Of a stretch of DNA of 59,864 bases, positions 131 through 59,864 are shown in pieces (positions within the stretch are counted from its first letter, which is position 1; each line of letters starts with the position of its first letter). The position numbers and the translations under genes are program-made. Origin of the DNA: Syntrophales bacterium (GTDB taxonomy: Bacteria; Desulfobacterota; Syntrophia; Syntrophales; JADFWA01); contig JAUSPI010000186.1 in the NCBI GenBank assembly GCA_030655775.1, forward strand, positions 1 to 59,864. Reading direction: 5' to 3'. A model generated the notes under the pieces. That model was not told the DNA's origin and made no database searches. It saw nothing but the letters and a program-made list of their open reading frames with translations.

Positions 131-232
131 AGACCAGCCACAGGGCGGGGCTTCCCGGTAAGGAATAATTTAATTATATTGCGCCCCTTGACCCGCCTAC
201 AAGGCGGGGCTTGCGGGGTGCGCTCCCGGTCA
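131..232 (+). repeat. Family C two-hairpin GC-rich intergenic element, copy C1 (left end degenerate)
   Basis: Aligns by eye with 13025-13137, 44454-44563 (rc), 53439-53630 and 59474-59549. Reads cacagggcggggcttcccggtaaggaa, AT-rich spacer, tatattgcgcccctt.accccgc.tacaaggcggggcttgcgggtgcgctcccggtca. Confidence 0.7.
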
Positions 233-269: not shown

Positions 270-1475
270 TCAAGCTTTTTTGATGACCAAAGCACTGTTA
301 TGGCCACCGAAACCGAAGTTTTCCACCACTACCGTATCTATAGAACATGTCTTCCCCTTTCGAACAAAGTTAATCCCTGGATGGCAGGGATCGTCTAAGT
401 TTCTTACCTCGGGGAGATAATCGTTTTGCATGCAGATAAGAGAGATGGCCAGCTCCAGAGCGCCACAGGCAGCCGATATATGCCCGATCCATGATTTCAG
501 CGCAATGACGCAAGGGGTGTGTCGATCATAGATGCGATTTATCATATTCGCTTCCATTGCATCATTGAGAAGCGTACCGGTTCCATGAGCAGAGACAACA
601 TCAACCTGATTGGGGGAAATTCCCGCCTCATGAAATGCCGTACGTACCGCCGTTTCTCCCCATTTTCCATCCGGGTCCGGAGCGGTCATGGCGTGACCAT
701 CAATCGAGCTCCCGAAACCAGAGATTTCACCATACATTTTTACTTCGCGTCTTTGTGCGTGGCCCATCTCTTCAAGGAGAAAAAAAGCACCTCCCTCCCC
801 GGGAACAAACCCGGCTCTTTTACTGTCAAAGGGCCGGCTTGCACTTTCAGGATCACCATCTCCGGCAAAAAGAGCATACGCTTTTTTGTAGGCGAGGAGT
901 CCTCCAGAACTTAAACGGGAATCACCTCCACCGGCAAATGCCAGATCCAGGTACCCATCTTTTATCTTTCGGAAGGCCTCACCTATGGCCTGCAGCGAAG
1001 CAGCACACGCAGCGGTTGATACAATGTTCTCTCCGTGAATTCCTGTTAATCTGGCAATAGAAGAAGCGGCAGTATTCGGGAGAAACTTCAAAATCCAGAG
1101 TGCCATAAGATCCTTCCGGTCCAGTTTTCCTTCCTGGATTTCAGGAAACTCCCCACCGATGTCGAGGTTGGGACCGGCTCCCGTGAACAGACCGGCCTTC
1201 CCAAGCAGTTCTTCGTCGATTCCTGCGTTTTTCACGGCCTCCATGGCCGATGCCGTTGAGAACTGCGCCCCCCTGTTCAGATAACGTCTGTCTTTAAATG
1301 GGCCGGTAAATTTTTTGATATCAAAGTTCCCTACGGGGCATGTAACCACACTGTCATCGAAAGAGGATCTTCCAAACGCAACTTTTCCGTTCTTCAGATT
1401 GTCAATGATCTGCCCCGGTGTAAAACCGAGAGAAGAAATGACTCCGATCGATGTAATGACAACTCTTCTCGCCAT
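270..1475 (-). CDS. beta-ketoacyl-ACP synthase, KAS I/II (FabB/FabF) family, biotin-cluster paralog
   Basis: 401-aa ORF with a thiolase-fold condensing enzyme and Cys-His-His motifs (STAACAAS, SAHGTGT, IGHISAACG). Its start lies 3 nt after the stop of the upstream ORF. Confidence 0.9.
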   Translation of the reverse strand: MARRVVITSIGVISSLGFTPGQIIDNLKNGKVAFGRSSFDDSVVTCPVGNFDIKKFTGPFKDRRYLNRGAQFSTASAMEAVKNAGIDEELLGKAGLFTGAGPNLDIGGEFPEIQEGKLDRKDLMALWILKFLPNTAASSIARLTGIHGENIVSTAACAASLQAIGEAFRKIKDGYLDLAFAGGGDSRLSSGGLLAYKKAYALFAGDGDPESASRPFDSKRAGFVPGEGGAFFLLEEMGHAQRREVKMYGEISGFGSSIDGHAMTAPDPDGKWGETAVRTAFHEAGISPNQVDVVSAHGTGTLLNDAMEANMINRIYDRHTPCVIALKSWIGHISAACGALELAISLICMQNDYLPEVRNLDDPCHPGINFVRKGKTCSIDTVVVENFGFGGHNSALVIKKA

Positions 1476-1477
1476 TC

Positions 1478-2122
1478 TTAAATCTCACGACAGATATCGG
1501 CAACGTTTATTCTTTCAGGTGCATCCGGTTTTTCATCCGGGAAGCCAACGGTAACAAAGCATTTAATCTTTACGTCCTCTATTCCAAGGATATTTTCCAC
1601 ATCCCGGACAAATGTAAAAGGTGCCGTCATGATACACGTACCAAGACCAAGCTCTTCCCCTTTGAGGAGAAATCCCTTTACGGCGAGGCCCACTGTGATA
1701 TCTATATCGGTATCACCTCTGCCAACTTTTTTATTTATCCCGGTCCGGGGCAATTTCCCTGAAGAACCCCGCTCTGGAGAAACCGCCCCCACAGCAAAAA
1801 GGACAGGTGCATCAAACATGAATTTCGAGAATCGCCAGTACATATTGATCCGGTTTTTCAGTTTATTCGGAGTGCTGCTTTTCTGTGCGCTTTGCAAACG
1901 TCTCTTTTGCCCATTAGCCATAGCCCGGTAAAGATTATCCCTGCTTTCGGGGGAGACAATTTTGATAAATCTAACCGGACGGCTGTTTTTGGGAGAAGGT
2001 GCCATCGCGGCGTAGCGAATCATGCTATTGATCCAATCCTCTGGGGGAACATCAGTTTTATATTTTCTTATACTTCTTCTCTTGTTAATAAGCTCATCTA
2101 AATGTGACATCACATCACCCAT
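1478..2122 (-). CDS. nitroreductase-fold flavoprotein
   Basis: 214-aa ORF with the N-terminal RRSIRKY motif typical of the nitroreductase family. Tightly packed upstream of the KAS gene. Start could be M1 (2122) or M5 (2110). Confidence 0.8.
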   Translation of the reverse strand: MGDVMSHLDELINKRRSIRKYKTDVPPEDWINSMIRYAAMAPSPKNSRPVRFIKIVSPESRDNLYRAMANGQKRRLQSAQKSSTPNKLKNRINMYWRFSKFMFDAPVLFAVGAVSPERGSSGKLPRTGINKKVGRGDTDIDITVGLAVKGFLLKGEELGLGTCIMTAPFTFVRDVENILGIEDVKIKCFVTVGFPDEKPDAPERINVADICREI

Positions 2123-2150
2123 AAAATGAATTCAAGCTAACAACTCTTCT

Positions 2151-2295
2151 CGTCATTCTGAACTGAACAGCGAGCACATTATTCTTCGAATTACTTCGTT
2201 CCCCGCTGCTTGCGGCGGGGTTAGCGAGCGAATAAAAAATAAATTTTTTCCTTTACAGTCGGAGATTCCCAGCAACTTGTTGCGGGGAGCTTCAA
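2151..2295 (+). repeat. Family D two-hairpin element, copy D1 (intercistronic, between ACP and nitroreductase genes)
   Basis: Near-identical to 52290-52415: gaactgaacagcgagcaca..tccccgctgcttgc.gcggggttagcgagcgaataaaa...cagtcggagattccc.gca.cttg.tgcggggagcttcaa. D1 carries an extra 20 nt (attattcttcgaattacttcgt). Confidence 0.8.
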
Positions 2296-2312
2296 TTTAT
2301 TTCAGAATCTCA

Positions 2313-2678
2313 TCATTCACTCCGCCAGGCTACATAACTGATAAGGTCTTTAACCTTGAGCGTGGGACCACCTTCGAGATCCGACATGATTTCTTCCACC
2401 CTGCTTTTGGTGAGGAACGGAAACTTATGCACAAGGTATTGCACGGTATCGCTCCCCTGCTCTTCTGCCTCGGTCATGTGAAACCTGAATGTCCTGAGAA
2501 AGAGTTCATCGTCTTTAACTTCTATATTAAATTTTGAGTTCAACGCCACCGCCAGCTCTAAAAGATCAATCGATTCTGCATCCAGATCTCTTATAACGTA
2601 GGTTTCAGGTGTAATCTCCTGATTTTCTATATCGAGGATTTCTATCAAAATTTTCTTTATTTGTTCTAAAATATCCAT
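2313..2678 (-). CDS. acyl carrier protein-like protein with C-terminal extension
   Basis: 121-aa ORF. The N-terminal ~75 aa look like an ACP, with a candidate phosphopantetheine serine in LDAESIDLLEL. About 40 extra C-terminal residues. Confidence 0.75.
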   Translation of the reverse strand: MDILEQIKKILIEILDIENQEITPETYVIRDLDAESIDLLELAVALNSKFNIEVKDDELFLRTFRFHMTEAEEQGSDTVQYLVHKFPFLTKSRVEEIMSDLEGGPTLKVKDLISYVAWRSE

Positions 2679-2735
2679 TTATACCTCTTAGATATCCCAC
2701 CCTGGGGGGAATTTACTTGCCTGATTGGGAGCGCT

Positions 2736-2764
2736 TTTATATCAAAGGGAGGAATATATGTCAA
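2736..2764 (-). promoter_or_regulatory. putative sigma70-type promoter of the ACP-nitroreductase-KAS unit
   Basis: On the minus strand, TTGACA (rc of 2759-2764), a 17-nt spacer, then TATAAA (rc of 2736-2741). The -35 overlaps the BirA operator half-site. Confidence 0.5.
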
Positions 2765-2788
2765 CCACAATTAAATTTCAGGTTGACA
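2759..2788. promoter_or_regulatory. second BirA-type operator (TGTCAACC-N14-GGTTGACA)
   Basis: Perfect inverted repeat TGTCAACC (2759-2766) / GGTTGACA (2781-2788). Lies in a 64-nt cassette (2727-2790) that is 59/64 identical to 8642-8705. Confidence 0.7.
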
Positions 2789-2871
2789 ATTGGGGTTAGC
2801 ATGGAATGATAATTGACTATGGTATTTGACCATGGTACACTTCTGCTATATTAATGGGAGGACATGTTTTT

Positions 2872-3120
2872 ATGAAAGAAGAGACTATCGCGATATCAAA
2901 ATTCAAGGCCACATGCCTGGCGGTTTTGAACAAGGTGAAACAAACAGGACAACCTGTTCTAGTTACGCGCCGGGGAGAACCTATTGCCCTTATTGAACCA
3001 CCCCCAAAACCACAGATGCGTGAGTCGTGGCTGGGAATGTTCCGTTCGAGGGGAACGATCACGGGAGATATTGTATCTCCTGCAGTCAGTTCACGTGAAT
3101 GGGAGGCTCTGGGGCAATGA
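2872..3120 (+). CDS. type II antitoxin, Phd/YefM family
   Basis: Starts MKEETIAISKFKATCLAVLNKVKQTGQPVLVTRRGEPIALIEPP. GGGAGG SD lies 9 nt upstream of the ATG at 2872. Its stop overlaps the toxin start (ATGA). Confidence 0.8.
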   Translation: MKEETIAISKFKATCLAVLNKVKQTGQPVLVTRRGEPIALIEPPPKPQMRESWLGMFRSRGTITGDIVSPAVSSREWEALGQ

Positions 3121-3533
3121 TGAAACTGTTACTGGATACACATATTTTATTGTGGAGCCTTCTGGATCCAGCACGCCTCGCCATGGAAGTTTCAGCAGAG
3201 TTGGAGAATCCCACCAATGAACTGTGGCTTTCCCCGATCAGCACATGGGAAATAATAATACTTGCTGAAAGGGGGCGCATTGTTTTGGATGCTGAACCGG
3301 CACACTGGATGAGGGATGTATTCAAAGCAATCGCTTTTAAAGAAGCTCCTGTTAATCATGAAGTCGCCATTCAGAGCCGCATGATTGATTTTGCCCAGGA
3401 GGACCCGGCTGACCGATTTTTGGTTGCAACGGCCATTGTCTATGATCTCACCCTGGTCACCGCTGACAGGTGGCTTATTGATTCTAAAGCGTGTTCTATA
3501 CTGCCAAATAACACAAGTTCACAAACAGGTTAA
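3117..3533 (+). CDS. vapC: type II toxin, PIN-domain VapC family
   Basis: MMKLLLDTHILLW... PIN-domain N-terminus. ATGA overlap with the antitoxin stop at 3117-3120. Confidence 0.85.
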   Translation: MMKLLLDTHILLWSLLDPARLAMEVSAELENPTNELWLSPISTWEIIILAERGRIVLDAEPAHWMRDVFKAIAFKEAPVNHEVAIQSRMIDFAQEDPADRFLVATAIVYDLTLVTADRWLIDSKACSILPNNTSSQTG

Positions 3534-3544
3534 GATGAAACTCA

Positions 3545-3705
3545 AAAAGGTTAGAACTTCTTCCTTTCTGGTTTGCAGGCACTTCTTCGCCCGTCCCGCG
3601 TCAACATAACCGGGGCGCAGCGTCACGATGGTGATTCCGCGTCCTCCCAATTCCTTTTCCAGATTTCCGTTCGCTTCGCCGGAATTTTGGCTGGTTTTTG
3701 GGGGC
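3545..3705 (-). pseudogene. relic of an SDR gene (homologous to codons ~190-240 of the SDR at 5140-5883)
   Basis: Translation ..LGGRGITIVTLRPGYVDAGRAKKCLQTRKEEVL matches ..LGERGITTVTLRPGYIDAGRGKTYMQTREEEVL of the intact SDR. The nucleotide alignment is visible but diverged. No N-terminal part or proper C-terminus. Confidence 0.55.
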
Positions 3706-3764
3706 AAGGAAACCAACAGGTTAACCCCTTTTTCGACAACATTGTATACCATTACACAAATGTC

Positions 3765-3793
3765 TTGACAATTATGCAGAGGTATGCATAATA
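3765..3793 (+). promoter_or_regulatory. putative promoter of the ATPase gene (leaderless arrangement)
   Basis: TTGACA (3765-3770), 17-nt spacer, TGc-ATAATA (3788-3793). The ATG at 3800 is 7 nt after the -10 and has no SD. Confidence 0.5.
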
Positions 3794-3799
3794 GGCCAC

Positions 3800-5038
3800 A
3801 TGGAAAGAATTGCAAGCACTTACATATTTGATCCTAAGATGACTGCCGGGAAGATGATCTTCCTGTCAGGTCCCAGGCAGGTCGGTAAGACCACCTTTGC
3901 GCAGATGTGGTTGAAGAATACCGGCGCCGAGGGTACATACTTTAACTGGGATGACCCGACGGTAATGGTGGAGTATAAGAGAAATCCGCTTTATTTCAAA
4001 AGTATCATAGAGGAAAGGTTTGGAAGAGAGCCCGTTCCGATTGTCTTCGACGAGATACATAAACATAAACAGTGGCGGAACATACTAAAAGGATTTTTTG
4101 ATATCAACAAAGAGAGAATGCAACTGCTTGTGACGGGTTCGGGTCGGTTCGATACCTATCAGAGATCCGGTGACTCCCTGTTGGGGCGGTACTTTTCATA
4201 TCAAATGTTTCCCATGGGTATTCCAGAGGCAGTCGGTGATTTTTCATATGTTATCAATAACGGTGACGTCTATGCCGACGGCGATAAACTGGCTAAAATC
4301 TCAAGGGACGCGATTGCAGAAGGGGCAGAGGAAGGATCCGAACTACTGTGGAAATTCGGCGGTTTCCCGGAACCTTTTTTAAGGGGGGAGGAAGAATTTC
4401 ACCGTCGATGGCAGAAAGATTACAAAACATTGATCGCACGGGAAGAGGTGAGAGATCTCTCGCAGATCCAGGATATCAGGGGTGTTGAAACGCTGGTAGA
4501 GGTGCTTCCTGCGAAAGTTGGTTCACCATTAAGTATAAAATCGCTCAGCGATGATCTGGGATATAACCAGAGGACAATAGCCCGATGGATCGAGGTGCTG
4601 AGTGCGTTATATCTTGTGTTTACTCTACGCCCCTGGCACAAAAAAATTGCCAGGGCAATAAAAAAAGAACCCAAGCTATACTTTTACGATTGGTCCCTCC
4701 TGTCTGACCGGGGGAATCGATTTGAAAACTTTGTTGCGGTAAGCCTTATCAGAATGGCGGCAAGGTTAACCGAAAAAGGTCTTGGTGAGTTCGAAATCAA
4801 CTATATACGGGACCGTGAAAAGAGGGAAGTGGACTTTGTGCTGGTACGGGACGGCAGCCCGATTTGTCTCTTCGAAACAAAAGAAGGCGGCAGGGACATC
4901 AGCCGCCACGGAAGGCATTTTAGTGAAAAACTGGGAATCCCGTACTACCAGATTGTCCGCCGGGCGGAAAGAGTAGAAGCGTTTCCAGGAAACTGTTTTA
5001 TTGTTCCGGCAACAAATTTTCTGATGCTGACGGGATAA
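3800..5038 (+). CDS. AAA-type ATPase with DUF4143-like C-terminal domain (COG1373-type)
   Basis: 412-aa ORF with Walker A GPRQVGKTT and Walker B IVFDEIH. The architecture is typical of stand-alone accessory ATPases. Confidence 0.85.
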   Translation: MERIASTYIFDPKMTAGKMIFLSGPRQVGKTTFAQMWLKNTGAEGTYFNWDDPTVMVEYKRNPLYFKSIIEERFGREPVPIVFDEIHKHKQWRNILKGFFDINKERMQLLVTGSGRFDTYQRSGDSLLGRYFSYQMFPMGIPEAVGDFSYVINNGDVYADGDKLAKISRDAIAEGAEEGSELLWKFGGFPEPFLRGEEEFHRRWQKDYKTLIAREEVRDLSQIQDIRGVETLVEVLPAKVGSPLSIKSLSDDLGYNQRTIARWIEVLSALYLVFTLRPWHKKIARAIKKEPKLYFYDWSLLSDRGNRFENFVAVSLIRMAARLTEKGLGEFEINYIRDREKREVDFVLVRDGSPICLFETKEGGRDISRHGRHFSEKLGIPYYQIVRRAERVEAFPGNCFIVPATNFLMLTG

Positions 5039-5115
5039 TATAGCACAGAGGTAAACCCTAAATTTCCATACAGCATGGCTAAAGCCCTGCCCCACATCTG
5101 CCCTTGTGTCTTAGT

Positions 5116-5135
5116 CTATCGGCTTTAGCCGATAG
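5116..5135. terminator. short hairpin between convergent ATPase and SDR genes
   Basis: ctatcggc-ttta-gccgatag is an 8-bp perfect stem. There is no clear U-tract. Confidence 0.3.
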
Positions 5136-5139
5136 CAGA

Positions 5140-5883
5140 TTACTTCCCCGCGGTCAGCCCGCCATCCAGGACAATTTCGGTGGCGTTAAAGCCCGCGGCG
5201 CTGTCTGAAAGGAGAAAGAGGATGGTTTCCGCCACCTCGGCTTCGGTAATGGCCCTTTTTATAGGTACCATCCTGAGAACTTCTTCCTCTCTTGTCTGCA
5301 TATATGTTTTTCCCCGCCCCGCGTCGATATAACCGGGGCGCAGCGTCACAGTGGTAATCCCGCGTTCTCCCAATTCCACCCCCAGGTTTTTGTAAAGCGC
5401 CTCCGAGGCCAGTTTGGCGGCCGCGTAAAAACCCTGACCGGGATTGGGCCTGTCCGCCGCCGATGAGGAAACAAAAACAAGACGCCCCCTTTTCTTTTTC
5501 AGCATCGCCCTTGACGCCCTTTTCAGGATTTCCGCGCGAAAAGAAATATTTTCAGCAAAATAACGGCGGACGCTGTCCTCATCGGCGGATGCTATATAGC
5601 TTTCAAAATCGCTTTGGGCGAAATCTACCAGAAAATCGATGTCGTCGCCGATCTGCTCAAACAGGGAATCCAGGGAATCACGGTCGCCGAGGTTGAGATA
5701 AAAATATCTGTATTTTCCCGCAAATGCCCCCAATTTTTCCGATATGTACTTCTGTCCCTTTTCGTTTCTGTAGGTCAGGATCGGAGAAAGAGACGCTTTA
5801 ATCACGCATTCGGCAAGAGCTATGGCAAGATCGCAACTGCCGCCCAGGATCAGGGTGCTATTGCCTGAAAAATTGAGTTTCAT
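5140..5883 (-). CDS. short-chain dehydrogenase/reductase (3-oxoacyl-ACP reductase-like)
   Basis: SDR catalytic YAAAK and upstream SSSA. Start chosen at MKLNFSG (5883) because it forms an ATGA overlap with the upstream hot-dog ORF stop. Confidence 0.85.
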   Translation of the reverse strand: MKLNFSGNSTLILGGSCDLAIALAECVIKASLSPILTYRNEKGQKYISEKLGAFAGKYRYFYLNLGDRDSLDSLFEQIGDDIDFLVDFAQSDFESYIASADEDSVRRYFAENISFRAEILKRASRAMLKKKRGRLVFVSSSAADRPNPGQGFYAAAKLASEALYKNLGVELGERGITTVTLRPGYIDAGRGKTYMQTREEEVLRMVPIKRAITEAEVAETILFLLSDSAAGFNATEIVLDGGLTAGK

Positions 5884-6164
5884 CTTTTCAAAACCCCTGT
5901 GACAAGCGCTTTGTCTCCCCGGTAAAGCCGGCATTTCAGCCGATCCGGCAAAAGCTCGATGCTGAAGGAGTACTCACCGGGAGGAACGAATTCTCGAAAC
6001 CTGAAATTTTCTATCGTGCAACCATCTGCCGTAAACCCGAGCGTTTTTCCTGCTTCTGAAAATGCATGAACTATCATACTACCCGGAACTACAGGACTTC
6101 CAGGGAAATGATCTTCGTAGATTCTGTCGGCCGGATCGAAGTAAAAAGTTCCTTTTGTTTGCAT
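5880..6164 (-). CDS. small FabA/FabZ-like hot-dog fold dehydratase
   Basis: 94-aa ORF carrying the DHFPGSPVVPGSMIVHAF motif (FabZ HFPxxPVxPG signature). Translationally coupled to the SDR. Confidence 0.75.
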   Translation of the reverse strand: MQTKGTFYFDPADRIYEDHFPGSPVVPGSMIVHAFSEAGKTLGFTADGCTIENFRFREFVPPGEYSFSIELLPDRLKCRLYRGDKALVTGVLKR

Positions 6165-6177
6165 GGGATGTCCTCAT

Positions 6178-6253
6178 CAGTAAGCAGTAAGCAGTAGGCA
6201 CTTTTTTTACTCCTTACTTCTTGCTGCCTACTGCTTACTCCTTACTGCCTACT
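6178..6253. repeat. Family F word-periodic palindrome (agtaagc/agtaggc heptads)
   Basis: agtaagcagtaggca (6186-6200) pairs perfectly with tgcctactgcttact (6225-6239). The arms extend as heptad words, and the bioA stop codon (6249-6251) lies inside the right arm. Confidence 0.75.
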
Positions 6254-7619
6254 CTTCCGTAACCGCCCTGATCGATCTGTATACAGCATCACAGAGCCTG
6301 TCCAGTTCATCTGTTGAGATGCTGAGCGGGGGCATCAGGATAATCACATCTCCGAGCGGGCGTATTATTACACCGTGCTTTCTTGCTTCCATTATTACAC
6401 TGTGTCCTATTCTATCTTTTGGGGGATAAGGTTCTTTCGATTCTTTATCTGCTACAAGCTCTATTCCCACCATAAATCCCCGCTGACGTATTTCGCCCAC
6501 GTGATCCAGTGATACGAATGGCTTCAAATTGTTTGTCAGGTGTTCGATTTTCTCCCGAAGGTTTTCCAGTGTCCGCTCCTCTTCAAAGATCTCCAGATTG
6601 GCCAGAGAAACTGCGCAGGCCAGGGGATTCCCCGTATAAGTATGTCCATGAAAAAAGGTCTTGAATTCGTCATAATCCGCTAAAAATCCGCGGTAGATAT
6701 CTTCGCTGGTGAGAGTTGCCGCCAGAGGCATATACCCCCCGGAAATACCCTTGGCTACGGCCATTATATCCGGCGTCACCCCTTCATGTTCACACGCAAA
6801 CATCTTACCTGTCCTCCCGAAACCAACTGCTACTTCATCGGCAATCATGATGACATGGTGTTTTGTACAGAGTTCCCTCACTTTTTCAAGGTAACCCAGG
6901 GGCTGAACCAGCATACCCGCGGCCCCCTGAACCAGAGGTTCAATCACAAAGGCGGCGGCCTCATGGCAGTGTGCCTCTATCGTCTCTTCCAGATTTTTGA
7001 AACATTCAAAATCACAGGAATCCTGAGTCTTTCCGAATGGACATCGATAACAGTACGGCGATTCGACATGGATGGAGGGAAAGAGAAGGGATTTATATGT
7101 AGCGTGGAAGAGACCGATCCCCCCCACACTAACGGAACCTATGGTATCTCCATGATACGCATTGGTAAGCGAGATAAATCTGGTCTTACCTGGATCGCCC
7201 GTATCTGCCTGCTGATGATACTGAAAGGCCATCTTGAGGGCAATCTCAACAGCAGTGGAACCGTTGTCTGAATAGAAGACCTTAGTCAGACCTTCCGGTG
7301 CAATTTCGATCAGTTTTTTCGCGCACTCGATGGCCGGAGGATTGGATAGTCCCAGCAGGGTTGAATGAGCAATCGTGCTGATCTGTTTTTTGAGGGCGTT
7401 ATCCAATTTTTCTTTTCTGTGGCCGTGTACGTTGGTCCAGAGTGAGGAAACGCCGTCTATGTATTCATTTCCGTAGGTATCCTTTAAGATGCATCCATTC
7501 CCCTCTTCGATTATGAGAGGGGTTTCCTTCACATAGTCCTGCATCTGGGTAAATGGGTGCCAGATATATTTTTTGTCATCAATTTCCAGTTGTCTGTTCC
7601 GCTCGGTCGTTGCTTCCAT
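6249..7619 (-). CDS. bioA: adenosylmethionine-8-amino-7-oxononanoate aminotransferase
   Basis: 456-aa class III aminotransferase with the BioA N-terminal YIWHPFTQM motif. Lies immediately downstream of bioB. Confidence 0.93.
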   Translation of the reverse strand: MEATTERNRQLEIDDKKYIWHPFTQMQDYVKETPLIIEEGNGCILKDTYGNEYIDGVSSLWTNVHGHRKEKLDNALKKQISTIAHSTLLGLSNPPAIECAKKLIEIAPEGLTKVFYSDNGSTAVEIALKMAFQYHQQADTGDPGKTRFISLTNAYHGDTIGSVSVGGIGLFHATYKSLLFPSIHVESPYCYRCPFGKTQDSCDFECFKNLEETIEAHCHEAAAFVIEPLVQGAAGMLVQPLGYLEKVRELCTKHHVIMIADEVAVGFGRTGKMFACEHEGVTPDIMAVAKGISGGYMPLAATLTSEDIYRGFLADYDEFKTFFHGHTYTGNPLACAVSLANLEIFEEERTLENLREKIEHLTNNLKPFVSLDHVGEIRQRGFMVGIELVADKESKEPYPPKDRIGHSVIMEARKHGVIIRPLGDVIILMPPLSISTDELDRLCDAVYRSIRAVTEE

Positions 7620-7620
7620 T

Positions 7621-8598
7621 TTAAATAAGCCCCATCTCCTGGATCATATTTGTATCCATTTCGGCATTTCTACCCTGTGTGGTAAGGTAGTTTCCTATCA
7701 TCAATCCGTTTGCACCCGCCATAAATGTCCATGACTGATAATCTTGGAGAGTTACCTCTCTGCCACCGCATATGGTTATATCCTTTCCGGGGTTTATAAA
7801 CCTGAAAAGGGCAATGCACTTCAATGCTTCCATAGGTGACAGCAAAGGCATACTTTCCATTCTGGTGCCGGCGACGGGATTGAGAAAATTTATCGGTACT
7901 ATGTCGACGTCCAGCTCTTTGAGTGTAAAGGCCAGTTCGATACGCTGCTCCCACGTCTCACCCAGCCCTAAAATACCCCCCGAGCAGGCCTTGAGACCGG
8001 TTGATTGGGCAAATTTGACCGTCTGAATATCTTCATCATAGTCATGGGTTGTACAAATCTGGTCAAAATAGCTCCGTGCGGTCTCAAGGTTGTGATGATA
8101 GGTTGTGATTCCGCCCTCTTTCAACCGTCTTGCCATCGGCTCGGTCAGCATGCCCAGTGAGGCACAAATCATAAGGTCGGTCTTCTCCTTAATGTTTGAC
8201 GCTGCCCGGCTGATCGTTTTAATTTCTTCGTCTGTAAGCATGGTCCCGCTGGTTACCATCGAGTATTTTGTAGCACCCGCTTCGTACATCCGAAGAGCAT
8301 TATCTACGAGCTCTTCTTCACTCAATAAGGGATACGTTTCAATTTCGGTTTTATGATGTGCCGATTGGGCACAGAAGGCGCAGTTTTCAGGGCAAAAACC
8401 GGATTTGGCGTTGATTATGGAGCATGTAAAAACACTGTTTTTTTTGTATTTATTCCTGATCTTATTGGCACACATTATCAGGTCGATGGTATCATCGACA
8501 GGAAGTACGGAAAGTTCACAAGCCTCTTCATAAGAGATGGAATTTCCGGCATCTTCCATAATTTTTTCAGTTATGGTAATTATCTTTTTGTTGAACAT
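7621..8598 (-). CDS. bioB: biotin synthase (radical SAM)
   Basis: 325 aa with the CPENCAFCAQS (CxxxCxxC) cluster motif. Conserved BioB length and context. Confidence 0.95.
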   Translation of the reverse strand: MFNKKIITITEKIMEDAGNSISYEEACELSVLPVDDTIDLIMCANKIRNKYKKNSVFTCSIINAKSGFCPENCAFCAQSAHHKTEIETYPLLSEEELVDNALRMYEAGATKYSMVTSGTMLTDEEIKTISRAASNIKEKTDLMICASLGMLTEPMARRLKEGGITTYHHNLETARSYFDQICTTHDYDEDIQTVKFAQSTGLKACSGGILGLGETWEQRIELAFTLKELDVDIVPINFLNPVAGTRMESMPLLSPMEALKCIALFRFINPGKDITICGGREVTLQDYQSWTFMAGANGLMIGNYLTTQGRNAEMDTNMIQEMGLI

Positions 8599-8650
8599 GG
8601 TTTTTATCCTTTAGTTGTTTGTATTTACATCTTCCGACTTCGGGAGCGCT

Positions 8651-8679
8651 CTTATATCAAAGAGAGGAATATATGTCAA
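8651..8679 (-). promoter_or_regulatory. putative bioB promoter
   Basis: On the minus strand, TTGACA (rc of 8674-8679), a 17-nt spacer, then TATAAG (rc of 8651-8656). The -35 lies inside the operator half-site. Confidence 0.5.
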
Positions 8680-8703
8680 CCACAATTAAATTATGGGTTG
8701 ACA
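8674..8703. promoter_or_regulatory. BirA-type operator TGTCAACC-N14-GGTTGACA between bioB and birA
   Basis: Perfect 8-bp inverted repeat with a 14-nt AT-rich spacer. Same class as the E. coli bioO half-sites (TGTAAACC / GGTTTACA, recalled from memory). Confidence 0.75.
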
Positions 8704-8731
8704 ATGAAGTCCGCACGTGGTGTATTGGGGC

Positions 8732-9721
8732 ATGACTACAAAAGAGCAATTGCTATCATACCTGAAAAAGGAGATGGGAAACTGGGTTTCAGGCGAGTCG
8801 CTGAGCAACAAGCTGGCGGTCAGCCGAGCTGCCGTTTGGAAACATATCGGCAAATTGAAAGCAGATGGCTATATTATAGAGTCCTCCCCTAAAAAAGGGT
8901 ATCTTTTGAGTAAGATTTCCGATCTGCTATTACCCGCTGAGATTGAGGAAGGACTTGATACCAGAGTCTTCGGGAAAGGAAATATTGTCTACCTTAATGA
9001 AATAGATTCAACCAATATAAAGGCAAAAGAGTTGGCAGCTATGGGCGCCCCTGAAGGGACGGTAGTCGTCGCGGAGAAACAGACGAACGGAAGGGGAAGA
9101 AGAGGTCGAAGCTGGTTTTCACCTTCGGGTGATGGAATCTATGCTTCCCTTATCTTGAGGCCGGTCATGTCTCCGATCGAGTTACCGAGAATCACCCTGA
9201 TGACAGCGGTTGCGGTATCAGATGCCCTGCTTTCACTTACGCAATTAAAAATCAGGATCAAGTGGCCCAATGATATCCTCGTGAACGGGAAAAAGATAGC
9301 CGGTATCCTTACAGAGATCAGTACAGAAATGGACGAGGTGGACTATATCATCGTTGGTCTCGGACTGAATGTTAACACGCCATCTGAAAGTTTTCCCGAG
9401 GAGATAAGGGAAGAGGCCACGTCAATTTCAACAGAGATGGGAAGACACTTTCCCAGAGCGCCGATTGTCCGTGAATACCTTCGATGGTATGAAAAGTATT
9501 ACGAGATGTTTAAAAAAAGAGGGTTTGAATCCATTATGCACCGGTGGAAGGAACTTGCCGATATCACCGGAGAGCAGATTATGGTTGACGTGCTCGGTGA
9601 GAAGTATGTCGGGGAAGTCCTCGATGTTGGCAATGATGGAGTCTTGCTCCTGATGGATAAAGAGGGAAATACTCACAGGATATTTTCGGGGGACGTGCAA
9701 ATAATAGGGGCACGCCCGTGA
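8732..9721 (+). CDS. birA: bifunctional biotin-protein ligase / bio operon repressor
   Basis: N-terminal winged HTH (LSNKLAVSRAAVWKHIGKLKADGY), a ligase core with GRGRRGR, and a C-terminal SH3-like domain. The ATG at 8732 is preferred over the GTG at 8717. Confidence 0.9.
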   Translation: MTTKEQLLSYLKKEMGNWVSGESLSNKLAVSRAAVWKHIGKLKADGYIIESSPKKGYLLSKISDLLLPAEIEEGLDTRVFGKGNIVYLNEIDSTNIKAKELAAMGAPEGTVVVAEKQTNGRGRRGRSWFSPSGDGIYASLILRPVMSPIELPRITLMTAVAVSDALLSLTQLKIRIKWPNDILVNGKKIAGILTEISTEMDEVDYIIVGLGLNVNTPSESFPEEIREEATSISTEMGRHFPRAPIVREYLRWYEKYYEMFKKRGFESIMHRWKELADITGEQIMVDVLGEKYVGEVLDVGNDGVLLLMDKEGNTHRIFSGDVQIIGARP

Positions 9722-9978: not shown

Positions 9979-11046
9979 ATGAAAATTGGACTGATCGGCT
10001 TGCCCAATTCGGGGAAGACGACAATTTTTAACGCGCTTACGAAAATGGAGGCCCACGTCACCACATACTCCAACGCAAAGGCGGAACCGAATGTGGCCGT
10101 CGTCAAGGTAAACGATGATCGCCTGATTCGCCTCACCGATATGTACAAGCCGAAGAAGACCACCGGCGCTACAATTGAAATGATCGATTTCCCCAGCTTG
10201 AAGGAAGGTTCCGCAAAGAACGGTTCTTTTTCAGGAAACTCCATGGAATGGATCAAAAACACAGATGCCCTGGCCCTGGTGGTGCGCAACTTTAATGATG
10301 ACCTGGCGGGAGATCCCACGCCTCTTGGCGACATTGACTAAATCGATACGGAACTTCTCCTCGCCGATCTTATACTCGTGGAAAACAGGCTTGAGAGGCT
10401 TGAATGGTTCCAGAAACGGGGGCAAAAAACGAATGCGCTTGCACTGGAAGAAAGAGCTCTCCGAAAAGTCGCGGAGCAACTCAACAACAATCAACCCATC
10501 CGGAACCTCGATCTTGATGAAGATGAAGAGAAAACGATACGCGGTTTTCAATTTCTCACGAAAAAACCGTTTCTTGTTATCCTGAACTCGGATGAAACCG
10601 TTTTCGGACAGAATAAGAATATCATGGGCGAAATCGAATCGCGGTACAACGTCATTGAATTCGCCGGCAGCTTCGAAACGGAATTGACTTGCCTCAACGA
10701 TGAAGAAGCGAAAATCTTTATGGAAGATATCGGCATCAAAAAGTCTGCCCGGGAGAGACTGACACAATTCGCGTACAGGACGCTCGGGTACGTAAGCTTT
10801 TTTACCATCGGTGAAGATGAAGTACGGGCATGGAGTATTCATGGTGGAGATACGGCGGTAAATGCGGCCGGCGCCATTCATTCCGATCTCGCGCGGGGAT
10901 TTATCCGCGCGGAATGTTTTACATACGATGAATTAATCGAATGCGGGTCGGAAAAAGGGGTGCGGGCGAACGGCAGCTTCCGGCTGGAAGGAAAAGATTA
11001 CATCGTCCGGGACGGCGATGTTCTGAGCATTAGATTCAGCGTCTGA
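9979..11046 (+). pseudogene. ychF: YchF/OLA1-family ribosome-binding ATPase interrupted by one in-frame TAA (10339-10341)
   Basis: ORFs 9979-10341 and 10378-11046 are in the same frame. Reading through gives PLGDID*IDTELLLADLILVENRLERLE, colinear with YchF. Has the P-loop GLPNSGKTT and a C-terminal TGS-like GFIRAE...[11 protein letters not shown]. Confidence 0.75.
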
Positions 11047-13024: not shown

Positions 13025-13137
13025 GTGAAGCTCCCCGCCCACAGGGCGGGGCTGCTTCCCGGCAAGGAATATGTTTGTTTTATATTGCGCCCCTTACCCC
13101 GCATACAAGGCGGGGCTTGCGGGTGCGCTCCCGGTCA
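13025..13137 (+). repeat. Family C element, copy C2 (most complete)
   Basis: gtgaagctccccgcccacagggcgggg...tatattgcgccccttaccccgcatacaaggcggggcttgcgggtgcgctcccggtca. Two GC hairpins flank an AT-rich spacer. Confidence 0.8.
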
Positions 13138-44453: not shown

Positions 44454-44563
44454 TGACCGGGAGCGCACCCGCAAGCCCCGCCTTGTAGGCGGGGTAAGGG
44501 GCGCAATATAAAACAAACATATTCCTTACCGGGAAGCTCCGCCCTGTGGGCGGGGAGCTTCAC
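44454..44563 (-). repeat. Family C element, copy C3 (reverse orientation)
   Basis: tgaccgggagcgcacccgcaagccccgccttgtaggcggggtaaggggcgcaatataaaacaaacatattccttaccgggaagctccgccctgtgggcggggagcttcac. Confidence 0.85.
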
Positions 44564-53438: not shown

Positions 53439-53630
53439 GTGAAGCTCCTCGCCCACAGGGCGGAGCTTCCCGGTAAGGAAATCGAAGATTCATGAGCCGA
53501 AGGCAAATCAATCGAAGATTCATGAGCAAAGCGAATAATCGGAGATAGTGAGCTATTGCGAATAATATATTCCTTTTATATTGCGCCCCTTACCCCGCCA
53601 GGGCGGGACTTGCGGGTGCGCTCCCGGTCA
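53439..53630 (+). repeat. Family C element, copy C4, with ~85-nt internal insertion
   Basis: Ends match C2. The interior 53481-53566 contains the direct repeat atcgaagattcatgagc (53481-53497 and 53511-53527) and gcgaataat twice. Confidence 0.8.
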
Positions 53631-59473: not shown

Positions 59474-59549
59474 GTGAATCTCCCCGTCCACCTGTCTGCC
59501 GTGTCCGGCACAGGCAGGCAGGGCGGGGCTTGCGGGTGCACCCCGGTCA
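59474..59549 (+). repeat. Family C element, copy C5 (short variant)
   Basis: gtgaatctccccgtcc...cagggcggggcttgcgggtgcaccccggtca. The AT-rich centre is replaced by a GC hairpin, cctgtctgccgtgtccggcacaggcagg. Confidence 0.6.
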
Positions 59550-59864
59550 TTTGCGGTTGAAATTTGAGATTATGGCAAAACAGGGATTAGAATGTTAATC
59601 GAAAATGGAGCTGTATGCAATTTTCGATTTGATGGTATTGATCAATGTAAATGACGGCTATCCGAACGTGGCTTAATGAGGAAAAGTATTGTTGTCGTCA
59701 CCTACTTATCAACGTCCTTGACTGTACCGAGAGATTACCCATTATTTAGGTGAGTGGCGCAGGGGAACTACCCCCCTGCGCTCTCTCAGAACTGGACGTG
59801 ACAGTCTCCCGTCATCCAGCTCCTATTGTCCAGCCTTGACCTGAGAGGGCCTCCAATGGGCAAA

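Follow-up and report, generated by a model that had tools for sequence, protein, structure and literature searches.

A biotin gene cluster in a Syntrophales contig

The window analysed here, by which we mean the whole 59,864-nucleotide (nt) stretch of contig JAUSPI010000186.1 from a Syntrophales bacterium, carries on its minus strand a biotin gene cluster in which bioB and bioA are accompanied by five further genes, four of them resembling parts of a type II fatty acid synthase (FAS II). In the order of transcription the cluster holds bioB, bioA, HOT (a truncated hot-dog protein), SDR (a short-chain dehydrogenase/reductase), ACP (an acyl carrier protein), NR (a nitroreductase-fold protein) and KAS (a ketoacyl-ACP synthase); it is without HOT2 (a second hot-dog candidate, described below), bioF and bioD. 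birA adjoins bioB and is divergent from it; its open reading frame (ORF) opens at a GTG at 8717, and the start is likely the ATG at 8732 (Table 1). The region, whose source is related to uncultured Syntrophales, is a copy of the extended biotin operon found in Desulfobacterota, in its nitroreductase-containing subtype, and we consider it likely that the overall role of the region is that of a BirA-controlled module dedicated to the pimeloyl moiety of biotin.

The genes, their order and their coordinates, as listed in an earlier reading of the DNA made from the sequence only (hereafter the sequence-only reading), were all reproduced by an ORF check and by Pfam/NCBIfam models. So was the tight packing when followed base by base: HOT and SDR share an ATGA overlap at 5883–5880, the TAA of bioB (7623–7621) is separated by one base from the ATG of bioA at 7619, and the TAA of NR (1480–1478) by two bases from the ATG of KAS at 1475. 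The true start of SDR is the ATG at 5883, not 5934, and M5 of the ORF listed for NR is where its homologues begin. None of the seven genes is disrupted, and their ratios of nonsynonymous to synonymous substitution (dN/dS) against the two closest loci, L001 and L002, range from 0.10 to 0.35. The cluster genes are thus under purifying selection. The four FAS-like proteins give clear matches to FabF, FabG, AcpP and FabZ models, all below the equivalog cutoffs, and since they score so, we take them for divergent paralogues rather than housekeeping enzymes.

Pfam scans of all window ORFs of at least 150 amino acids (aa) returned no BioC- or BioH-kind methyltransferase or esterase, no BioW, no P450 and no KAS III, which agrees with the earlier statement that the window has no bioC, bioH, bioW, bioI or bioZ type protein; BioF and BioD were likewise not found among these ORFs, nor was BioG. 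BioB itself has a serine at the position of Escherichia coli Cys97 (KYSMV, 37 residues past the CxxxCxxC motif) and a cysteine 10 residues ahead of the first radical-SAM (S-adenosylmethionine) cysteine. The same Ser/Cys motif defines the oxygen-sensitive Type II biotin synthases, which carry a 4Fe-5S auxiliary cluster (PMC10813225), and by this motif the window BioB is classed as Type II, the anaerobe type.

Table 1. Features of the biotin cluster and its surroundings in the window
Feature	Position	Strand	Remarks
bioB, biotin synthase	7621–8598	−	TIGR00433, 406 bits vs cutoff 225
bioA, adenosylmethionine-8-amino-7-oxononanoate transaminase	6249–7619	−	TIGR00508, 566 bits vs cutoff 405
HOT, truncated FabA/FabZ-like hot-dog protein	5880–6164	−	94 aa
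SDR, FabG-like, presumed 3-oxoacyl-ACP reductase	5140–5883	−	247 aa
ACP, specialised	2313–2678	−	121 aa
NR, nitroreductase-fold flavin mononucleotide (FMN) protein, candidate enoyl-ACP reductase	1478–2110	−	210 aa
KAS, FabF-like, elongating	270–1475	−	401 aa
birA, bifunctional biotin-protein ligase and repressor	8732–9721	+	HTH_11 and BPL_LplA_LipB domains
Promoter–operator block, copy 1, between bioB and birA	8642–8705	−	operator 8674–8703
Promoter–operator block, copy 2	2727–2790	−	operator 2759–2788; 59/64 identical to copy 1
Intercistronic RNA hairpin, bioA–HOT spacer	6178–6247	−	inverted repeat, 96% complementary
Phd/YefM-type antitoxin	2854–3120	+	inserted DNA
PIN-domain toxin	3099–3533	+	inserted DNA
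AAA_14/DUF4143 ATPase	3800–5038	+	inserted; no pathway member; absent at that position in L001 and L002
SDR-gene relic, partial duplicate	3552–3670	−	38 codons; 74% aa identity to window SDR
ACP–NR spacer, about 200 nt	2111–2312	none	absent from L001; hairpin-rich repeat and KAS-start relic
DNA unrelated to the cluster, with REP-like CGCAAGCCCCGCC	1–265	none	replaces HOT2-bioF-bioD; contig end

Conserved gene order in related loci

A profile of the NR family, built from 271 homologues, retrieved 80 genomic loci (numbered with the prefix L), whose gene counts are lower bounds given a crude ORF caller. These loci come mostly from Syntrophales, Syntrophaceae, Desulfobacterales and related metagenome-assembled genomes, and also from Syntrophus buswellii and Desulfocicer vacuolatum. 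Complete genomes with the cluster include S. buswellii DM-2 (NZ_CP175563.1) and the metagenome-assembled chromosomes OY970063.1, OY764159.1 and OY762510.1. The closest are two uncultured Syntrophales bins, L001 and L002, with 83–92% and 75–88% aa identity to the window proteins, respectively. The recurrent contiguous order is bioB-bioA-HOT-SDR-ACP-NR-KAS-HOT2-bioF-bioD, where Pfam identifies bioF as Aminotran_1_2 and bioD as AAA_26; in the nearest relatives (L001, L002 and L072), KAS is succeeded by HOT2, bioF and bioD. KAS comes after NR in 68 of the 70 loci with enough downstream sequence, and ACP before NR in 63 of 68. This arrangement is kept even where bioB and bioA are not adjacent, as in L052, L053, L064, L076 and L078. 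ACP-NR-KAS is thus a fixed core over some 70 loci, of which the NR gene is a fixed member, and the comparison defines the full conserved set as HOT, SDR, ACP, NR, KAS and HOT2.

When only loci with at least 5.5 kb of upstream and at least 4.5 kb of downstream flank are counted, bio genes stand near the module in 37 of 40 and on both sides of it in 32. In nearly all loci that reach the 5′ end of the cluster, a single BirA operator lies upstream of bioB, bioA or birA, and the related loci have none between SDR and ACP. The sequence-only reading had proposed co-occurrence with bio genes and BirA sites as a check, with a majority of modules lacking them counting against it; the orthologous modules were mostly found with both. 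Its proposal of a mini-FAS reserved for the pimeloyl moiety and controlled by BirA is supported by this linkage, by the operators, by the invariant catalytic residues of KAS and SDR and by the purifying selection. These data also bear on the view that the module serves the synthesis of a different acyl compound (say a lipid, a polyketide or a lipoate precursor) and that its FAS-like genes stand among bio genes by chance. KAS, SDR and ACP do fall below all FabF, FabG and AcpP equivalog cutoffs. However, in 32 of 40 loci the genes belong to a BirA-controlled unit, where they are placed between bioA and bioF, and their homologues in Desulfovibrio vulgaris are needed specifically without biotin, so that we regard a chance association as very improbable.

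Condensing enzyme and ketoreductase

Cys157, His297, His332 and Lys327 of KAS are invariant in all 73 homologues, and by this Cys-His-His-Lys set the protein is assigned as a decarboxylating, elongating synthase. With a fabF equivalog score of 284 bits against a cutoff of 494, it is a divergent paralogue and not the housekeeping FabF. Similarly, SDR keeps Ser139, Tyr153 and Lys157 in 55 of 55 homologues and scores 96 bits against the FabG cutoff of 298. The YxxxK motif marks ketoreductase-type SDRs, the enoyl reductases FabI and FabL being marked by Yx6K; by its motif, then, the window SDR is of the ketoreductase type and not of the enoyl-reductase type. It is the sole SDR of the cluster, which thus has none of the FabI/FabL type, and no FabK-type (NMO) or FabV-type protein occurs among the window ORFs. 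The absence of a FabI-, FabK-, FabL- or FabV-type enoyl reductase, on which the sequence-only reading had built its case for NR, was therefore found as described.

Two hot-dog proteins with one catalytic residue each

The dehydratase that the same reading counted along with the condensing enzyme and the ketoreductase presents a different picture. Those two have their residues in place, but HOT, taken alone, is without the catalytic Glu. Its His19, the histidine of the HFPG motif, is present in all 51 sequences; at the position of the FabZ catalytic Glu, which in FabZ lies in an xxEAxAQ helix, there is a histidine in 35 of 51 (His33 in the window) and a glutamate in none. HOT matches FabZ structures in the Protein Data Bank (PDB) with E-values down to 1e-6 and scores 28 bits with the FabZ models (cutoffs 113–155 bits). 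Aligned with an E. coli FabZ sequence entered by hand, it gave 95.5% probability, His19 falling on His54 and His33 on Glu68. HOT therefore lacks the FabZ pair of His and Glu in one polypeptide, and by its sequence it is probably not a complete dehydratase.

A candidate for the missing part is HOT2, a gene product of about 150 aa encoded between KAS and bioF (6685–7143 in L001, 11820–12332 in L002, and in 53 further loci). The family comprises 451 proteins, all named hypothetical, or 221 representatives at 50% identity. No Pfam domain was matched by single sequences, by 28 members or by 34 distant members, and a narrow HOT2 profile reached only E 1.4 against the PDB. With a broad profile, the 11 best PDB matches were all FabZ-type dehydratases, the best at E 0.0033 and near full length. 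In the alignment with FabZ, 14 residues are missing from HOT2 exactly where FabZ has its His loop, and Glu46 of its ESLAQ helix, present in 55 of 55 sequences, falls on the FabZ Glu. A direct hhalign comparison of HOT2 with HOT found nothing.

FabZ forms its active site across two subunits, one giving the His and the other the Glu. Since HOT keeps the His and HOT2 keeps the Glu, the two look like complementary halves, and on these alignments we lean towards the view that they form a heterodimeric dehydratase with a single active site. It is predicted, then, that dehydration needs both hot-dog proteins.

An acyl carrier protein with an extra segment

ACP carries its pantetheine serine, Ser36, within an invariant ESIDLLE motif, and its homologues are all about 120–130 aa long, with sequence similarity to ordinary ACPs limited to residues 1–58. 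The predicted structure (mean predicted local distance difference test score, pLDDT, 86.7; one of five models confident) places helices at 3–15, 36–50 and 56–60, three extra ones within 64–99 and a last one at 109–120. The features expected of an ACP are there: the conserved serine at the start of helix II and, in that one confident model, a four-helix bundle. Superposed on ACPs of 75–80 residues, the model gives a template modelling (TM) score of about 0.8 relative to the target over some 118 alignment columns, with a gap of about 45 residues. Based on this superposition, the last helix is probably the canonical helix IV and the extra residues an insertion between it and helix III, not a C-terminal tail. 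The unusual length noted earlier, given as a C-terminal extension of about 40 aa, is thus real at about 45 residues, but it is modelled before the last helix and not after it. This family-specific insert may mediate partner recognition.

The nitroreductase-fold protein

NR matches PF00881 at 97 bits. R11, R12, S13 and R15 of its RRSIR motif, the N-terminal flavin-phosphate signature (RRSxR) of this superfamily, are invariant, as are two cysteines. The model (pLDDT 79) shows a confident nitroreductase fold, with Foldseek matches down to E 5.7e-12. The best of these are two uncharacterised clostridial proteins, followed by FbiB's C-terminal domain and then by iodotyrosine deiodinase and BluB. 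The FbiB domain, at a TM-score of 0.65–0.7 and about 23% identity, is the nearest characterised structure. Further matches of the NR profile are the enone reductase CLA-ER (4qlx) and albonoursin synthase. FbiB's C-terminal domain reduces the methylene C=C of dehydro-F420-0 using FMNH2 (PMC6450877); thus, the fold has a precedent for reduction of a C=C beside a carboxylate. By this analogy NR may be the enoyl reductase of the module, an assignment that we hold tentatively, at a little short of even confidence.

BirA operators and a duplicated promoter block

The window has two perfect BirA sites of the form TGTCAACC-N14-GGTTGACA, each within one of two nearly identical 64-nt promoter–operator blocks (Table 1); a third is absent from the window even at 3 mismatches, where shuffles expect 0.21. 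The operator pattern for the extended bio operon is TGTnAACC-N14/15-GGTTnACA. The exact E. coli-type operator, TTGTAAACC-N13-16-GGTTTACAA, gave 0 matches, the delta-proteobacterial variant being the right pattern. In copy 1, hexamers read by eye place a -35 box, TTGACA, at 8679–8674 and, after a 17-nt spacer, a -10 box, TATAAG, at 8656–8651. Copy 2, read likewise, has TTGACA at 2764–2759, 17 nt and TATAAA at 2741–2736, and is placed 49 nt upstream of the ACP start. In both copies the -35 box lies inside an operator half-site, so that BirA binding would occlude it. From these signals, copy 2 appears now to drive ACP-NR-KAS, keeping both halves of the cluster under BirA control. Block identity to L001 is 59/64 for copy 1 and 58/64 for copy 2, and these values, taken with the identity between the copies, are uninformative for dating the duplication.

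On the plus strand, a promoter-like TTGACA-16-AATGAT at 2783–2810 overlaps operator copy 2, and the Phd/PIN pair encoded next to it might be biotin-regulated through this overlap. In the spacer between bioA and HOT, GCAGTAAG-like repeats make up the 23-bp stem of a hairpin (−37.9 kcal/mol, z −7.2), and the corresponding spacer of L001 also has repeats related to them. The hairpin may be an intra-operon attenuator or an element for mRNA processing or stability.

Rearrangement of the window copy

At about 88–90% nt identity, the window is collinear with L001 except at 5140–2680, at 2322–2111 and below 266. First, a stretch of 2.46 kb, running from the SDR stop (5140) to the ACP start (2678), is absent from both L001 and L002. 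It contains the Phd/PIN pair, a relic of an SDR gene, copy 2 of the 64-nt promoter–operator block and an ATPase whose match in PADLOC is the candidate defence family PDC-S01 (E 7e-52). The closest relative of this relic is the window's own SDR, and an origin from a foreign cluster was rejected. Second, the spacer between ACP and NR has a hairpin-rich repeat, also present in L002 in the opposite orientation, and, at 2140–2162, just upstream of NR, a 21/23 copy of the ribosome-binding and start region of KAS. The two relics suggest that parts of the cluster were duplicated in the past. Third, homology to L001 stops 4 nt past the KAS stop, and tblastn over the 59.9 kb did not detect HOT2, bioF or bioD (E >1). 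By their positions, the missing genes may have been displaced beyond the foreign DNA, past the contig end.

Judged by its collinearity with L001, the window copy is one ancestral operon split by the 2.46-kb insertion, and not two native operons. The sequence-only reading had placed both units behind the same BirA-type operator, which holds for the two perfect sites; the second unit, however, is the operon's distal part, cut off from the rest and served by the duplicate block. Likewise, its five-gene dedicated module is intact in all five genes but incomplete in the window, where HOT2, bioF and bioD are absent. The duplicated promoter–operator plausibly compensates for the polar effect of the insertion, and the split operon provides a small natural example of regulatory repair following insertion. 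Foreign ORFs are also seen inside other modules, one of 2145 aa between ACP and NR in L046 and one of 220 aa between NR and KAS in L065; the cluster seems to tolerate insertions.

The REP-like CGCAAGCCCCGCC has five intergenic copies in the window (203–215, 13109–13121, 44470–44482, 53602–53614 and 59522–59534) against 0.03 expected. At the right end, 40 nt from the end of the contig, domain V/VI of a group II intron lies on the minus strand at 59749–59824 (RF00029, 52.8 bits), the remainder running off the window. An assignment of positions 1–265 to the 5′ end of such an intron was rejected, as Rfam had no match for them at E up to 1. Both contig ends are probably due to repeated mobile elements. 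Outside the cluster, the ychF-like GTPase gene at 9979–11046 has an in-frame TAA at 10339–10341 (GDID*IDTELLLADL), which is a nonsense mutation or a sequencing error.

The degree of rearrangement raises the question of whether this copy is in decay and unable to sustain biotin synthesis any longer, so that the organism would be an auxotroph or would use another route. The three insertions relative to L001 with the two relics, the absence of HOT2, bioF and bioD, the stop codon in neighbouring ychF and the NR dN/dS of 0.35 against L001 would fit this scenario. Nevertheless, the seven genes are intact and keep their catalytic residues, the dN/dS values are far under 1, the downstream unit has its own intact promoter–operator copy, and the missing genes may just sit past the contig end. 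We therefore consider decay improbable for this copy.

A proposed route to the pimeloyl moiety

We propose that the operon combines the late enzymes BioB and BioA with a private type II FAS that would build pimeloyl-ACP on its own carrier, without methyl-ester masking, and that BirA would repress it at the promoter whose -35 box sits within the operator. KAS would condense a malonyl-derived primer with a free ω-carboxylate and malonyl-ACP, in two rounds (C3 to C5 to C7); SDR would reduce the 3-oxo group; and the HOT/HOT2 heterodimer would dehydrate the product with the His from HOT and the Glu from HOT2. NR would then reduce the 2-enoyl intermediates, glutaconyl-ACP and 2,3-dehydropimeloyl-ACP, and BioF would take the resulting pimeloyl-ACP. 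We infer the chemistry of every step, including the enoyl-reductase role and the heterodimer, from the conserved gene content, the position in a BirA regulon, the lack of any other candidate reductase in the cluster and the published fitness data on D. vulgaris.

The reduction step has another possible explanation, namely that the module makes pimeloyl-ACP while a housekeeping FabI, FabK or FabV reduces the enoyl group and NR has some other task in biotin synthesis, perhaps supplying reduced flavin or electrons, or processing the primer or the chain end. Trotter et al. leave a housekeeping reductase open, and DVU2064 is essential and hence untestable in D. vulgaris; moreover, the structural neighbours of NR (BluB, iodotyrosine deiodinase and FbiB) are chemically varied. 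On the other hand, NR stands between ACP and KAS in 63–68 of about 70 loci, with its stop 2 nt from the KAS start in the window; it stays with ACP-KAS even where bioB and bioA are not adjacent; it is the module's sole redox enzyme besides the YxxxK-type SDR; and C=C-reducing enzymes of the nitroreductase fold are known, as FbiB's C-terminal domain and CLA-ER show. We thus think the housekeeping explanation unlikely, though it deserves to be kept in view.

Several points weigh against the dedicated module as we have drawn it. The closest structural relatives of NR (the BluB-like proteins, iodotyrosine deiodinase and FbiB's C-terminal domain) do diverse chemistry, and several of them need external reduced flavin. 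The dN/dS of NR is the highest of the gene set. The sequence link between HOT2 and FabZ is weak, with that one profile E-value and no Pfam match. The window copy, without HOT2, bioF and bioD, depends for its function on genes beyond the sequence seen. No biochemical assay of any module enzyme was found in the literature searched, and, as Trotter et al. point out (PMC10102598), the enoyl reduction could be carried out by a housekeeping enzyme.

In its boldest form, our proposal is that NR represents a fifth, structurally new class of enoyl-ACP reductase, acting on ω-carboxy-enoyl-ACPs, which together with a split FabZ (94 aa with the His, 150 aa with the Glu) and an ACP with a three-helix insert would make a self-contained pimeloyl-ACP synthase without methyl-ester masking. 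We hold this with slightly less confidence than the reductase role of NR itself. For the many strict anaerobes concerned (Desulfobacterota, Syntrophales and others), the evidence on how the pimeloyl precursor is made is genetic and comes from one organism.

Comparison with known systems

FAS-like genes in the bio operons of Desulfovibrio, which the sequence-only reading had mentioned, were indeed described by Rodionov et al. in 2004, who found homologues of ACP, KAS, ketoreductase and dehydratase behind a BirA site in an extended bio operon and proposed a new pimeloyl route (PMC545781). Trotter et al. subsequently (2023) showed that DVU2558-2565 of D. vulgaris, with two FabZ-like genes, and the unlinked nitroreductase DVU1220 are needed for growth without biotin. 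They reported similar clusters in other Desulfobacterota and in Desulfurispirillum, noted that in Syntrophobacter fumaroxidans and Desulfobacter vibrioformis the cluster includes a nitroreductase-like gene, made the case for a specialised ACP and no methyl esters, and suggested the nitroreductase-like protein or a housekeeping enzyme as the enoyl reductase (PMC10102598). The interpretation as a dedicated module is thus already published, and the window holds a further copy, rearranged and incomplete; no later biochemical work on the pathway was found in the literature searched. What we did not find in Rodionov et al. or Trotter et al. are the complementary His and Glu hot-dog halves, the ACP insert, the fixed ACP-NR-KAS core and the split with its duplicated promoter–operator.

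The D. vulgaris Hildenborough system (DVU2558-DVU2565 with DORF42491, plus DVU1220) and the cluster type of the window have several features in common, as far as the published description allows them to be likened: an upstream BirA operator, and bio genes on either side of genes for FabZ-like proteins, a dedicated ACP, a FabF-like KAS and a FabG-like SDR. A nitroreductase-type protein is involved in both, and neither bioC nor bioH was seen. Unlike D. vulgaris, the window has its NR gene within the cluster, an arrangement known from the Syntrophobacter and Desulfobacter examples. The window operon further differs in being split by the 2.46-kb insertion, in its second promoter–operator copy and in having no second FabZ-like gene, bioF or bioD.

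With the BioC/BioH route of E. coli, the window system would share two FAS-type elongation rounds from a malonyl primer to a pimeloyl thioester on ACP. In E. coli, however, the housekeeping FAS II elongates the methyl ester of malonyl-ACP, whereas the window system has no methyltransferase or esterase, and dedicated enzymes and a dedicated ACP would replace the housekeeping FAS II. In the alpha-proteobacterial BioZ route (Hu and Cronan 2020), a KAS III-like enzyme reportedly condenses glutaryl-CoA with malonyl-ACP. A dedicated condensing enzyme in the bio cluster is common to both, but the window KAS is FabF-like (Cys-His-His) and not KAS III-like, and it comes with its own reductase, dehydratase parts and ACP.

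Relative to FabZ, HOT aligns with the His motif and HOT2 with the Glu helix; the differences are that each keeps one catalytic residue only and that HOT is truncated to 94 aa. The nearest comparison is presumably with heterodimeric or double hot-dog dehydratases with a single site, such as HadAB and the double hot-dog DH domains, from which the HOT and HOT2 genes differ in being separated by four others. Finally, NR shares the nitroreductase fold with FMN with FbiB's C-terminal domain (4xom, 4xoo and 4xoq) and with CLA-ER. Both of these reduce a C=C beside a carboxyl or carbonyl group (PMC6450877 for FbiB; the PDB molecule name for CLA-ER), and the activity predicted for NR would differ from theirs in that its substrate is bound to ACP.

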